From: Escherichia phage SkaterBoy_Bas90 | Sequence record: PQ850626.1 | DNA length: 64,000 nt | Direction: 5' to 3' (one strand) | Part shown: one piece after another, positions 23,492 through 34,640 of the stretch | Layout: every line of letters begins with the position of its first letter | Position numbering within the stretch: the stretch's first letter is position 1 | Program-made: the position numbers and the translations under genes | The notes under the pieces: generated by a model | What the model saw: only the letters and a program-made list of their open reading frames with translations | What the model was told of the DNA's origin: nothing | Databases searched by the model: none

Positions 23492-25336
23492 TTAGTGTGT
23501 GTGCATCCAGTTAAGTCCAATCTGACAATCAGATGCCAGAGGACATTCCATGTTCAGATACTCGCCAGCTTTCTTAACACAAAGCTCAGTGTGCTCTTTG
23601 AGTTTCTGTACATCATTACGGTTTACTGAGAATTGACCTTCATCGTGCATATCAATTACCTTAGCACAACGAACCTTATCTTTCTCAATCCACTTGTTAA
23701 GGAACATCATAGCATATTTCATAACAACAGCACCAGCACATTGCAGGAGTGTGTTAAGGGCTTTATGAACCATAACCTTACCAGTGGCATCCCGTCTCAT
23801 TGTAATCTTACGACCATCAACTCCAATCAAGTATCCTTGAGCAGCTTTCTCTGTCATACGATCAATGAGGATTGCAATACATGGGTTCTCTGCTAAGAAA
23901 CGTGCTCGCATCACTGAACCTTCGTCAGCCCCACCACCTACAATTGAACCAAGCTTAGCATCGCCAGCACCGTAGTTGAATGCATAGATAAACGTTTTAG
24001 CGTTGTCACGAGTAGGAAGACCAGCAAGTTTCTGGTTGTGGGAGTGGATATCACCTTCAAGGAGAATATCACGATACATAATAGCAGAAGCTAAACCACG
24101 TTCTGCCAGAGCTTTCTTAGCTGGGTTGTTCTCTTCAATTGCCTCAGCAAGCATATCCCTACACTCTTTAATGAGGTAGTGAGCGAGCATACGAAGTTCA
24201 AGTCCAGAACCATCATACCCCAAGAATACTTCTTTACCAGCGGGTATGTAATATTTGTAAGCGCCTACAGGTTTGTCTTTCTTCCCCGGCTTACCTTTCT
24301 CGTAAATTACGTTAGTACCTTTTCGTATATAACAACCATCAGGAACAACGTTAGTAATAACGAAAGGACGAGAGTGATCACTGTCTGAGTTATAGTCAGA
24401 CTCAAACAAACTGCGACACTCGTGACCAAACAAACCACGGGAGGGAATATTAACCACGATACGATGTTTGAATCGAAAAGTTGGCGTAGCGCAGCTGTTA
24501 GCTTCTGCCGAAAGTTTACCATCTTCGCGTTCCTTTGCTATGAGTCCACTGATAAGACCTAGCCTGTGAGCCGCTACAACGCGTCTCTTAAGCAAACTTC
24601 CGACACTCCCTAGCTCACCCCCTAACCCTTCTTCAAGAGTCTCCTCGAGGTTTGTAGGAGCTGTAGGCCACTTGTTTGATGTGGCTAGTGCTTTCTTAAT
24701 CTCATCAAACGTTACAGGATTACGACGATTCGGGTTTAATCCCAAACCAAATACGTAAGCCTTCATATAATTCTTAGTTTTAAACCTGAAATGCTTTTCT
24801 AAGAACTTCTTAATATCAGCGTCAACCATCTCGGCTGTCTGCTTCTGCTTAGCATTGCCTCGCATCCAAGCAGTATACCATGCTTGGTACGTTCCATACT
24901 TTCTCATATCTTTCTTAATTTCGAAAGTATTCCAAGGCTTCTTAGATACGTTAAACTCTGGAGGAAGAAAGCCCTCATCCATAAGAGCTTCTTTAACTCG
25001 TGCATCTTTCGATGGGTCAAAGTCTACGTATTCGACACAGGTGAAAGCTCCACCAATATCTTCTCTCTTCAGCCCAACCCTATCACAATAGGCTTGAGGC
25101 CACTTCTGTAAAGCTCCAGACTTCTTAAACGGCTTCATGTAAGTAGAGCCGTCTAATCTCATCTTAGGTAAGAGAGGAATCAACTCTCTGTCAATATTAA
25201 CAATAATCTCTTTAAGGAGGTGAACATACCACCGAGCATTTCTTCGGTTGAAACTCACTCCGTGCTTTGCTTGCTTAGAGATTATATCAGCGACAGTCAT
25301 CTCTGTCAAAAATGGAAGAGCGTCCGGGTTGCTCAC
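23492..25336 (-). CDS. DNA polymerase, family A, polymerase domain only
   Basis: Motif A LGYDGSGLELRMLAH, motif B RDNAKTFIYAFNYGAGDAKLG, motif C VIDMHDEGQF; no DEDD exonuclease motifs in this ORF. Confidence 0.8.
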   Translation of the reverse strand: MSNPDALPFLTEMTVADIISKQAKHGVSFNRRNARWYVHLLKEIIVNIDRELIPLLPKMRLDGSTYMKPFKKSGALQKWPQAYCDRVGLKREDIGGAFTCVEYVDFDPSKDARVKEALMDEGFLPPEFNVSKKPWNTFEIKKDMRKYGTYQAWYTAWMRGNAKQKQTAEMVDADIKKFLEKHFRFKTKNYMKAYVFGLGLNPNRRNPVTFDEIKKALATSNKWPTAPTNLEETLEEGLGGELGSVGSLLKRRVVAAHRLGLISGLIAKEREDGKLSAEANSCATPTFRFKHRIVVNIPSRGLFGHECRSLFESDYNSDSDHSRPFVITNVVPDGCYIRKGTNVIYEKGKPGKKDKPVGAYKYYIPAGKEVFLGYDGSGLELRMLAHYLIKECRDMLAEAIEENNPAKKALAERGLASAIMYRDILLEGDIHSHNQKLAGLPTRDNAKTFIYAFNYGAGDAKLGSIVGGGADEGSVMRARFLAENPCIAILIDRMTEKAAQGYLIGVDGRKITMRRDATGKVMVHKALNTLLQCAGAVVMKYAMMFLNKWIEKDKVRCAKVIDMHDEGQFSVNRNDVQKLKEHTELCVKKAGEYLNMECPLASDCQIGLNWMHTH

Positions 25337-25352
25337 TTTATACTCCTTTAAA

Positions 25353-25775
25353 TTATTGGTAAAGTAAATCTGTAAATGCTTGGTTATCTTCTACTACATT
25401 CAACATGGTAGCTTCATCACTATAAGCCCTAACCGTCCCGTTGACAACTGTCCAAGGAGGAGGTGGAGGTGGTGCATGGTTAGCCCTATCTTCACGAGGT
25501 TGCTCTCGTACTAAATGAGCCACAACCCTCTGATTAGCAACTTCTTCTCTTTCTCTGATAGCTCTCTGAATGTAGGCCAGCTTCATGCCCCAAGCTTCTT
25601 CAAACTCTTGAGGGTGTTTATCACTGATAACAACATACTGACGTTCAGTAATACCAGAGCGAATTTCTGATAATAATTCATGGAACAAATCCAGTTCATG
25701 TTCAGTGAGATTCATTTCGATATCATCCCACTTGAGAACTAAGAAACGGTTTGGATATCTAGCTGGTAATGGCAT
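25353..25775 (-). CDS. hypothetical protein with a poly-Pro stretch
   Basis: 140-aa ORF. Confidence 0.3.
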   Translation of the reverse strand: MPLPARYPNRFLVLKWDDIEMNLTEHELDLFHELLSEIRSGITERQYVVISDKHPQEFEEAWGMKLAYIQRAIREREEVANQRVVAHLVREQPREDRANHAPPPPPPWTVVNGTVRAYSDEATMLNVVEDNQAFTDLLYQ

Positions 25776-25938
25776 CCTACTCCACCTCTACTTCAATGTA
25801 AGTTCTCTCGCCAACATCGTCTTTTAAGACCCATGACTTGGCATCTTCTTCCGACTTAAAAGCTTTCACAACGCTGTATCCGCCTTCCCATTCATCGCCG
25901 AACCAGCGCTGTCCTACGTAAATGTATTCTTTCATCAC

Positions 25939-32758: not shown

Positions 32759-32767
32759 TCTTATTCC

Positions 32768-34081
32768 TTAGTTATTTGTTTCCATGTCAAAAGAGATTCC
32801 ACGACCCGCTTCATCGGCAAACCGAACTGTACGGGTTTGAGGTTCTAATACTTCAGGGTTGTTAGCAATAAAGCGATCAGCGAGACTATCTCCCAAATCT
32901 TGTTCCATACCTTCATCAGTCCAGATAACACGAGAAGGGGCGTTGATATCACCAACAGCGAAACCCTGACCAGAGAACTGACGTGCGCTAACAGTTAAGC
33001 CGTTTGGTCGACCACGAGAGGGTCTAGCCATCCATCGCTCCATAGAATCACTTGTAATACCAAGAGCTTCTTCAAAAGATGTTCTACGAGTAGGGCTTTC
33101 TCTTCGTGACTCTTGTGCTCGACGCATTGCAGGGGCTACAAACACCCCTTCAATTGCATTGTGTCGGTTAGGTTCCTCTTCTCGACCAAGCAGATCACCA
33201 CCCGTGTTAGTCGTTAAATTTGTCAACCCCTCAGACCAATACGCATGAATCTGACCAGAACCGTGAAGACTAGACATAATCTGAATCTCTTCATAAGGGA
33301 TTCCAAAGAATCGACTCATGTCTCGGTTAACACAATATAGAGCACTTGTTGTATCTTCAATAAGAGAAACCTGACCTAATCCATTGACTAGATGACTAAC
33401 TGGCTGAGGTGTGGGAAGATATCGAGTTTGGGCCATGTATTGATGCGCAACTGCTGGAGAGGAAAATCTCAACACTTGTGAGTTAGGCCACTTCTTGTGA
33501 ACATACATGATTTCACGACTAGAGACAACCACTGGACAAGGGGAAGTCATAGCCAAATATCCGTGAGAAGTCATGAATAAGTTGTCAAGAGTCATCGCAC
33601 CACGGCACATCATAGGAAAATTATCCAATACCTCTTCAATAGAAGTAGGATAATTAAACATGAATTGGATACGAACCCCATTCCACTGAAACTCAATAAT
33701 ATCAGTGAATGTTAATTGAGAACCCCCAGCATAGGATTCGTTTGTAGCTTCAGCAAGAAGTGATGCATATTCAATATCTTGTGACTCTAGCCATTCCTTC
33801 ACATTACTTTCAATCTCCCGTCCAAGCTCTTGCCAACGATCAGTTGGGATGAAAGTGTTTTGAGTTCTTGGTGTTTGTCCTCTGACAATAAAGATATCAA
33901 TGTCATGTGGAGCTATGTTATTAAGGACAGCATCACGAACAGCCCCACCAGTAATGATGGGACAGATACCATCTGGAATCAAGTTGTTGTTAATCAACTG
34001 TTCAATGAAGTGACGACCAACAGTGATATCAGGTTGTTGAGCAACCTTATCTTCAATTTGGTTAATCGGGATAACAATCAT
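32768..34081 (-). CDS. nucleotidyltransferase of the CCA-adding / poly(A) polymerase type (Pol-beta fold)
   Basis: GGAVRD followed by DIDIF, the head-domain motifs of class II CCA-adding enzymes; long C-terminal region without recognisable motifs. Confidence 0.5.
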   Translation of the reverse strand: MIVIPINQIEDKVAQQPDITVGRHFIEQLINNNLIPDGICPIITGGAVRDAVLNNIAPHDIDIFIVRGQTPRTQNTFIPTDRWQELGREIESNVKEWLESQDIEYASLLAEATNESYAGGSQLTFTDIIEFQWNGVRIQFMFNYPTSIEEVLDNFPMMCRGAMTLDNLFMTSHGYLAMTSPCPVVVSSREIMYVHKKWPNSQVLRFSSPAVAHQYMAQTRYLPTPQPVSHLVNGLGQVSLIEDTTSALYCVNRDMSRFFGIPYEEIQIMSSLHGSGQIHAYWSEGLTNLTTNTGGDLLGREEEPNRHNAIEGVFVAPAMRRAQESRRESPTRRTSFEEALGITSDSMERWMARPSRGRPNGLTVSARQFSGQGFAVGDINAPSRVIWTDEGMEQDLGDSLADRFIANNPEVLEPQTRTVRFADEAGRGISFDMETNN

Positions 34082-34082
34082 T

Positions 34083-34640
34083 TTACATTTTCCAATATAA
34101 TGAAGGTGGGTCGTAAGGGTCAAATCCCGTGAGTTCACACAAGAAAAGATAAACCTTAACAGTTAAGTTAACGTCCTGTTCACAATAAGTAAACATATCT
34201 TCAGTGAAAGCATCCCATGCTTCCTCTTGCTCACCGTAGTCACCTTTAAGTTCCTCTAAGAACTCACCCCATTGCTTCAAACCATGACCTCTTGGGCCAC
34301 GTCTAGGGTCGCCTTTCGGATACTCAGGACTGTCACCAATACGGTCAGGTTTAAGATATCGACTAAGACATAAAGTGTCAAAGACGTTAAAATTATATTT
34401 AATCAAAGAGGGATACATCTTTTTCAGAGCAGGTAAGTCGAAGTCAATAATATTATGACCCACTAGTACATCTGCTTCTGTAAGTTTACGAATCCCATCT
34501 TCAATTTGGTGAGGCCGATAGCCCCACCTTTCACCAGTTTCAACATCAAAGATATAAATACACCATACTTTAGTTATGTCATCGTACAGTGCATTACTCT
34601 CGATATCGAATGCAAACACTTTCTTCTTTTTCTTTACCAC
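34083..34640 (-). CDS. 3'-5' exonuclease (DEDD family), the proofreading half of a split family A polymerase
   Basis: Exo I FDIES, Exo [10 protein letters not shown], Exo III YCEQD in the order seen in the PolA proofreading domain. Confidence 0.65.

Follow-up and report, generated by a model that had tools for sequence, protein, structure and literature searches.

Escherichia phage SkaterBoy_Bas90 (sequence record PQ850626.1) carries, within the 64,000-nucleotide (nt) stretch analysed here and referred to as the window, an open reading frame (ORF) with the motifs of a family A DNA polymerase and no exonuclease motifs, and, about 9 kb away on the same strand, a second ORF of 185 amino acids (aa) with the motifs of a 3'-5' exonuclease. 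This locus raises the question of whether the two ORFs are separated parts of a single T7 gp5-like polymerase and, if they are, how the parts would be brought together to replicate and proofread DNA. Comparison with T7 gp5 by sequence and by modelled structure shows that each ORF supplies the half of a T7 gp5-like family A polymerase that the other lacks, and it is likely that the ancestral gene was split by gene fission and that its two products form a non-covalent two-subunit enzyme.

The window belongs, by nucleotide identity and synteny, to a phiEco32/SU10-like E. coli podophage of the genus Kuravirus (Gordonclarkvirinae). With a 14-kb query from around the two ORFs, nucleotide identity was 98.7% for Escherichia phage FS2B and 96.6% for vB_EcoP_SU10 (hereafter SU10), and a single match covering at least 80% of the query was obtained in 59 phage records. 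Every gene between 15 and 62 kb of the window lies on the minus strand.

The 185-aa ORF is homologous to the exonuclease domain of T7 gp5

The stand-alone 3'-5' exonuclease (34083..34640, minus strand) is homologous to T7 gp5 residues ~3-196. Its ORF starts with a GTG preceded by GGAG, and 1 nt separates its end from the ATG of the next gene, which is nucleotidyltransferase-like. The protein contains an Exo I motif (FDIES; D12, E14), an Exo II motif (GHNIIDFD; N63, D68) and an Exo III motif (YCEQD; Y152, D156), which correspond to the DxE, Nx2-3(F/Y)D and Yx3D elements of the DEDDy pattern, and it is matched by the Pfam family DNA_pol_A_exo1 (PF01612) at 2e-8, above the gathering score. An alignment of 46 stand-alone homologues, extending down to ~31% identity, shows no variation at D12, E14, D68 or D156 and at least 90% conservation at Y152; a C-terminal FDxxxPP tail, which occupies the linker position where FPPE is found in T7, is also conserved in the exonuclease homologues. 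The protein is a DEDD exonuclease of the gp5 type, and the conservation of its active-site residues shows it to be under selection.

A search of the ORF against all PDB sequences at E ≤ 1 returned only T7 gp5 (residues 3-178, E 1e-11). An AlphaFold2 (AF2) model built on 46 homologues has a predicted local distance difference test (pLDDT) score of 94.5, and the top 27 PDB matches of this model in Foldseek are all T7 gp5 chains, with values of 1.5e-11 to 2.5e-9. The next match is the exonuclease domain of DpoZ, another phage family A polymerase (4e-6), whereas the stand-alone nucleases TREX1 and ExoI match at 1e-5 or weaker, five to six orders of magnitude below gp5. Exonuclease domains attached to polymerases are nearer to the ORF than are free nucleases of the DnaQ, RNase T or TREX type, the opposite of the ranking that the original prediction had named as evidence against itself. 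A word-indexed search found 65 relatives of the ORF, every one of them a short protein of 101-247 aa that stands alone.

The 614-aa ORF comprises the thumb, palm and fingers of a T7-like polymerase

The polymerase subunit (23492..25336, minus strand; 614 aa) is homologous to T7 gp5 residues ~205-704 and starts with a GTG located behind an AAGGAG ribosome-binding site. Motif A (DGSGLELR), motif B (RDNAKTFIYAFNYGAG) and motif C (HDEGQ) are present in that order and fit the patterns DxxxLExR, RxxxKxxxYxxxYG and HDE, respectively. They align with T7 D475, R518/K522/Y526 and D654/E655, with a tyrosine at the Y526 position of motif B, and none of these residues varies among 47 homologues. The best PDB sequence match of the ORF is T7 gp5 (1e-32), which also occupies ranks 1-27 when the AF2 model (pLDDT 90.6) is searched with Foldseek (1e-25 to 2.5e-19), with Bst and Klenow-type enzymes at ~1e-15. 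The ORF comprises the thumb, palm and fingers of a T7-like family A polymerase.

No exonuclease domain was detected in this ORF by Pfam, by fold or by an exonuclease-family profile. DNA_pol_A (aa 361-611) is the only Pfam match, and a profile built from the 46 stand-alone exonucleases, which matches T7 gp5 residues 2-190 at 6e-39, gives the polymerase ORF a score of -0.5 with filters off. This score disposes of the cryptic exonuclease domain that the original prediction had named as a second finding that would count against it. The N-terminal 360 aa are instead collinear with the thumb and palm of gp5, with the addition of a helical insertion. This insertion of ~100 aa (~aa 135-235) is one of three that are specific to the lineage, the others being located at ~aa 325-368 and ~390-420; it follows a region equivalent to the thioredoxin-binding region, which is ~20 aa shorter than that of T7, and it is missing from T7 and from the fused relatives in the alignment.

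The two ORFs are complementary and meet in the exonuclease-polymerase linker

In BLASTP the exonuclease ORF matches gp5 residues 5-196, and the match of the polymerase ORF extends up to gp5 residue 704. When the exonuclease and polymerase sequences are concatenated and aligned with MAFFT, they run collinear with T7 gp5 and six fused relatives of ~600 aa, which are 43% identical in the polymerase part, and the polymerase N-terminus is positioned at gp5 residue ~205. The junction falls in the exonuclease-polymerase linker, at approximately T7 residues 196-205, and no segment is missing or duplicated. The alignment to T7 gp5 that had been proposed as a check on complementarity accordingly confirms it, with one ORF covering gp5 5-196 and the other ~205-704. 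The predicted composition of both ORFs is upheld as well: coordinates, motifs, Pfam matches and profile scores agree on a polymerase ORF with motifs A, B and C and without exonuclease motifs, and the Exo I, II and III motifs together with a 7-nt gene overlap agree on an exonuclease gene just downstream of the primase-helicase gene.

That primase-helicase gene (34634..36424, minus strand; 596 aa) was identified by Pfam DnaB_C (9.9e-11) and a weak Toprim_2 match, and its SU10 orthologue, SU10_076, is annotated as primase/helicase. It lies directly upstream of the exonuclease gene, and the 7 nt shared by its stop and the exonuclease start (GTGGTAA) indicate that the exonuclease gene is translationally coupled to it. 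The polymerase gene lies downstream on the same strand, its start separated by 8,746 nt from the stop of the exonuclease gene, in line with the predicted ~9 kb. The number of intervening genes was underestimated, however, as the gap contains about 22-23 ORFs rather than about twelve; roughly twelve ORFs there are at least 90 aa long. In SU10, 23 coding sequences (CDS; SU10_052 to SU10_074) separate the orthologues of the exonuclease (SU10_075) and the polymerase (SU10_051), both of which are annotated as 'DNA polymerase'.

The two halves are assigned to different temporal classes

CDS69-125 of SU10 have been classed as early and CDS25-68 as middle by homology to phiEco32 macroarray data (PMC4281155). 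According to these boundaries the exonuclease (CDS75) and the primase-helicase (CDS76) are early and the polymerase (CDS51) is middle. Two sites in the window correspond to the middle-promoter motif of the phiEco32 gp36 sigma factor, the motif TAATGTATA and the class boundaries being taken from PMC4281155 and PMC8948821. The first, AAATGTATA (31576..31584, minus strand), has one mismatch to the motif, is intergenic and upstream of the SU10_068 homologue, and is predicted to mark the early/middle boundary between the two polymerase halves. The second is an exact match, TAATGTATA (27204..27212, minus strand), and is also intergenic, upstream of the SU10_056 homologue and of the polymerase gene. 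Scans for sigma-70 promoters and terminators across 22.5-39 kb gave counts no higher than those of shuffled sequence and are therefore uninformative on operon structure.

Within codons 10-19 of the polymerase ORF itself, the sequence fits the sigma-70 consensus perfectly (25281..25309, minus strand; TTGACA-17 nt-TATAAT, the -10 element being extended by TG), and this is the only 12/12 match in 16.5 kb. The site is identical in SU10, retains only the -10 element in an 87%-identical relative and is degraded farther out. Owing to this erosion it provides no evidence of a conserved internal promoter, and it could be a product of chance and codon choice or a clade-specific internal promoter.

The split is shared by related phages and varies in gap length

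The arrangement is a known one, present both in annotations and in print for this genus and for related phages. Exonuclease and polymerase have been described as separate genes in the LUZ24 group and in phiEco32 (PMC3517423, through which the original phiEco32 report is cited here), and the separation is common to all members of the Kuravirus group as well as to 7-11, Privateer, Vp_R1 and BUCT695 (PMC9965538). The Kuravirus phages phiEco32, SU10 and YF01 carry the same system as the window with no substantive difference, apart from a few small ORFs in the gap. The LUZ24-like phages (Bruynoghevirus; PaP3, tf and TL), in which the genes are labelled '3'-5' exonuclease / DNA polymerase part I' and 'part II', share the gene order and break point of the window and have a polymerase that is ~39-42% identical, but their gap is 1.9 kb and their polymerase, at ~545 aa, is without the Kuravirus insertions.

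Every examined genome with an exonuclease-less polymerase carries the exonuclease a few kb upstream, and the order of primase-helicase, exonuclease, gap and polymerase is kept in Aeromonas phage APT65, Pseudomonas phage TL and the metagenomic relatives L008 and L009. The length of the gap is 1.9 kb in TL, where it contains 7 small genes, 3.2 kb in L008 (an 84.8-kb contig), 8.6 kb in both L009 and SU10, 8.7 kb in the window and 9.6 kb in APT65, and it exceeds 10 kb in the 106-119-kb contigs L006 and L007, where NrdD and NrdG are encoded inside it. In a fused relative the order is primase-helicase, ligase and then the fused polymerase. A neighbour-joining tree was built from 99 polymerase domains, and the six fused relatives are placed in it within exonuclease-less clades. 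The tree is crude, being based on BLOSUM62 distances with T7 as a long-branch outgroup and no support values, and with 'split' scored by ORF length only, and no conclusion is therefore drawn from it on the number of fission or re-fusion events.

The polymerase gene is interrupted a second time in some of these phages. Unlike that of the window, the polymerase of LUZ24 and TL is split again into parts II and III, for which an intron has been reported in LUZ24 (PMC3517423), and in TL an endonuclease VII gene separates the two parts. In many relatives (P0079-P0082, P0145-P0148, P0164 from BUCT695, and L004 8411..10717) the polymerase ORF ends at ~aa 450, inside motif B. This second interruption looks like a mobile intron or homing endonuclease; the polymerase gene of the window is uninterrupted.

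A comparable case is known from S-SBP1-like cyanophages, in which the split of a T7-like PolA was analysed by Czernecki et al. 2023 (PMC10201439). As in the window, the split enzyme is T7-like (cluster #5 for S-SBP1) and has a shortened thioredoxin-binding region. The S-SBP1 complex is predicted to be preserved, since the AlphaFold2 complex of the S-SBP1 exonuclease and polymerase superposes on the unsplit polymerase (PMC10201439). The S-SBP1 genes, however, are adjacent and overlap via a 1-nt frameshift, indicative of a recent fission, whereas those of the window are 8.7 kb and ~22 genes apart and, by homology, also belong to different temporal classes. T7 gp5 resembles the window in that it is the closest solved structure for both halves, shares the catalytic motifs and is encoded with the primase-helicase gene upstream, but it is a single 704-aa polypeptide that uses host thioredoxin, whereas the window encodes two polypeptides and a phage thioredoxin.

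Proposed assembly of the two subunits and alternative explanations

If the two halves arose by fission and reassemble, an ancestral gp5-type polymerase gene would have been broken at the exonuclease-polymerase linker, and the exonuclease and polymerase proteins would associate non-covalently into a gp5-like two-subunit enzyme, in which, as happens in T7, a mispaired primer end would move from the site of polymerization to that of the exonuclease. The exonuclease and primase-helicase would be early sigma-70 genes, as judged by phiEco32 homology, and the polymerase subunit would lie behind middle promoters recognized by the phage sigma factor gp36. With the two halves in different temporal classes, the complete enzyme would not form until the polymerase gene is reached by middle or read-through transcription. 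It is reasonable to infer that proofreading is supplied in trans.

Several points weigh against a two-subunit enzyme of this kind. No biochemical demonstration of complex formation, trans-proofreading or subunit stoichiometry in Kuravirus was found in the literature consulted. Proteomics of SU10 detected the polymerase and thioredoxin and did not list the exonuclease, which is a weak negative given that a virion preparation was analysed. The different temporal classes, which for the window are drawn by phiEco32 homology from the data of another phage, could leave the exonuclease acting alone for part of the infection. The SU10 authors report no terminator at the early/middle boundary (PMC4281155), and read-through of early transcription is therefore likely.

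The best-surviving alternative, although an improbable one, is that the exonuclease is free-standing and does not bind the polymerase stably, that it has an early role alongside the primase-helicase, such as the processing of primers or flaps, recombination or the breakdown of host DNA, and that the polymerase operates without dedicated proofreading. A free-standing enzyme would fit the coupling of its gene to that of the primase-helicase, its early class as opposed to the middle class of the polymerase, the stand-alone form of all 65 of its word-index homologues, and its absence from an SU10 protein list in which the polymerase is present. It is harder to reconcile with the finding that the closest relative by both sequence and fold is the exonuclease domain of gp5 rather than any stand-alone nuclease, with the conservation of a tail equivalent to the linker, and with the strict co-occurrence of the exonuclease and an exonuclease-less polymerase in the examined genomes. 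Family A polymerases have, in addition, been described as structurally requiring the exonuclease domain for stability, and the split complex of S-SBP1 is predicted to be preserved (PMC10201439).

A second alternative, that the halves are rejoined by trans-splicing introns or a split intein into a single gp5-like polypeptide, has a very slight chance of being correct. Group I introns are known in the polymerase genes of related phages, as in LUZ24 and in parts II and III of TL, but in the window the exonuclease ORF stops and the polymerase ORF starts precisely at the gp5 linker, which leaves no residues over for intein halves, and the gap consists of ~22 conserved protein-coding genes with their own promoter motifs. 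Inteins and trans-splicing were excluded on the grounds that neither the C-terminus of the exonuclease nor the N-terminus of the polymerase carries additional residues and that Rfam finds no intron anywhere in the window.

A third alternative, in which the small ORF encodes a nuclease of the DnaQ/RNase T type with no relation to gp5 and a cryptic exonuclease domain persists in the polymerase ORF, is extremely improbable and has no supporting point, being contradicted by the PDB, Foldseek and profile results, and the unrelated nuclease is ruled out by the restriction of PDB sequence matches at E ≤ 1 to gp5.

Genes within the gap and around the replication genes

Many of the ~22 genes in the gap have nucleotide-metabolism or accessory functions. 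The first of them is nucleotidyltransferase-like (32768..34081, minus strand) and is annotated as nucleotidyltransferase in SU10 (SU10_074). The longest-ORF call for it (32768..34138, minus strand) overlaps the exonuclease gene by 56 nt, and the gene probably starts at the ATG at 34081, 1 nt past the exonuclease stop. Approximately the first 140 aa of the protein weakly match the head domain of poly(A)/CCA polymerases (Pfam PolyA_pol, 0.0023), and the remaining ~300 aa have no match. This gene is followed by those for a dCTP deaminase (32225..32758, minus strand; Pfam DCD 3.6e-34), a Dps/ferritin-like DNA-binding protein (30651..31262, minus strand; Pfam Ferritin 4.8e-7; SU10_067) and, farther downstream, the ThyX thymidylate synthase (29454..30110, minus strand; Pfam Thy1 1.4e-43). 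All four functions had been placed in the gap on sequence inspection, and Pfam matches, weak only for the nucleotidyltransferase, and the SU10 annotation support this placement.

Between the Dps-like and ThyX genes lies a gene for a phage thioredoxin of 91 aa with a CxxC motif (30126..30401, minus strand; Pfam Thioredoxin 1.8e-13). By analogy with T7 gp5 and host thioredoxin it is a candidate processivity partner of the polymerase, a role that has been proposed for it previously (PMC7881722), and its SU10 counterpart, gp65, was found by mass spectrometry. The gap also encodes a PhoH-like ATPase (27224..27961, minus strand; Pfam PhoH 4.2e-56) and a 107-aa ORF (28337..28660, minus strand) in which Pfam Nlig-Ia, the NAD+-binding domain Ia, is the only match (5.4e-35). 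The latter is without ligase catalytic domains, and the label 'NAD-dependent DNA ligase' given to its homologue in SU10 is an overstatement. A 53-aa ORF (25777..25938) is extra relative to the SU10 annotation and has no counterpart there.

Upstream of the primase-helicase gene are a gamma-glutamyl cyclotransferase-like gene (36644..37063, minus strand; GGACT 3.4e-17) and an ATP-grasp-like gene (37570..38763, minus strand), the latter with a weak Dala_Dala_lig_C match and an SU10 counterpart, SU10_082, annotated as 'ATP-grasp enzyme'. The same module, together with a glutamine amidotransferase, also precedes the primase-helicase gene in APT65 and in LUZ24-like TL, so that the split polymerase is not the only feature that these groups have in common in their replication regions.

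A separate 5'-3' exonuclease (FEN-like; 15801..16643, minus strand) is matched by Pfam 5_3_exonuc_N at 5.8e-7, below the gathering score, and is a third nuclease/polymerase function encoded apart from the others; such a gene has been described for the phage group (PMC9965538). A tRNA-Arg with anticodon TCT (50337..50412, minus strand) is the only Rfam or ARAGORN match in the window. A 248-aa ORF without a Pfam match (19545..20291, minus strand) ends in an acidic tail, ...YEDDNDSPF, and the primase-helicase ends in ...ADGASPW. The tail of the 248-aa ORF presumably resembles the C-terminal tails of T7 gp2.5 and SSB; in T7, acidic C-terminal tails with an aromatic residue bind the polymerase.

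Implications of the split polymerase

As the split had already been described for this phage group, the finding is confirmed but ordinary and of modest importance, and little is added to it by the assignment of the two halves to different temporal classes and by the graded widening of the gap. For annotation, it implies that the 185-aa ORF is only the proofreading subunit, although it frequently carries the label 'DNA polymerase' or 'type I DNA polymerase'.

It is rather doubtful that the split is more than a neutral fission and is exploited by the phage. If it is exploited, it could time the onset of replication, or set the ratio of exonuclease to polymerase and with it the fidelity of replication, because the exonuclease is early and coupled to the primase-helicase and the polymerase lies behind middle promoters. 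The junction between the two genes may also be a hot spot that accumulates nucleotide-metabolism genes, as the gap is graded from 1.9 kb in LUZ24-like phages through 3.2 kb in a metagenomic relative and 8.6-9.6 kb in Kuravirus and Aquaneticvirus to >10 kb in the carriers of NrdD and NrdG. Within the enzyme itself, the ~100-aa thumb insertion and the phage thioredoxin might replace contacts that the split has removed or changed. For enzymology, a T7-like polymerase that naturally consists of two subunits, together with a phage-encoded thioredoxin, would be convenient for separating the polymerase and exonuclease functions.

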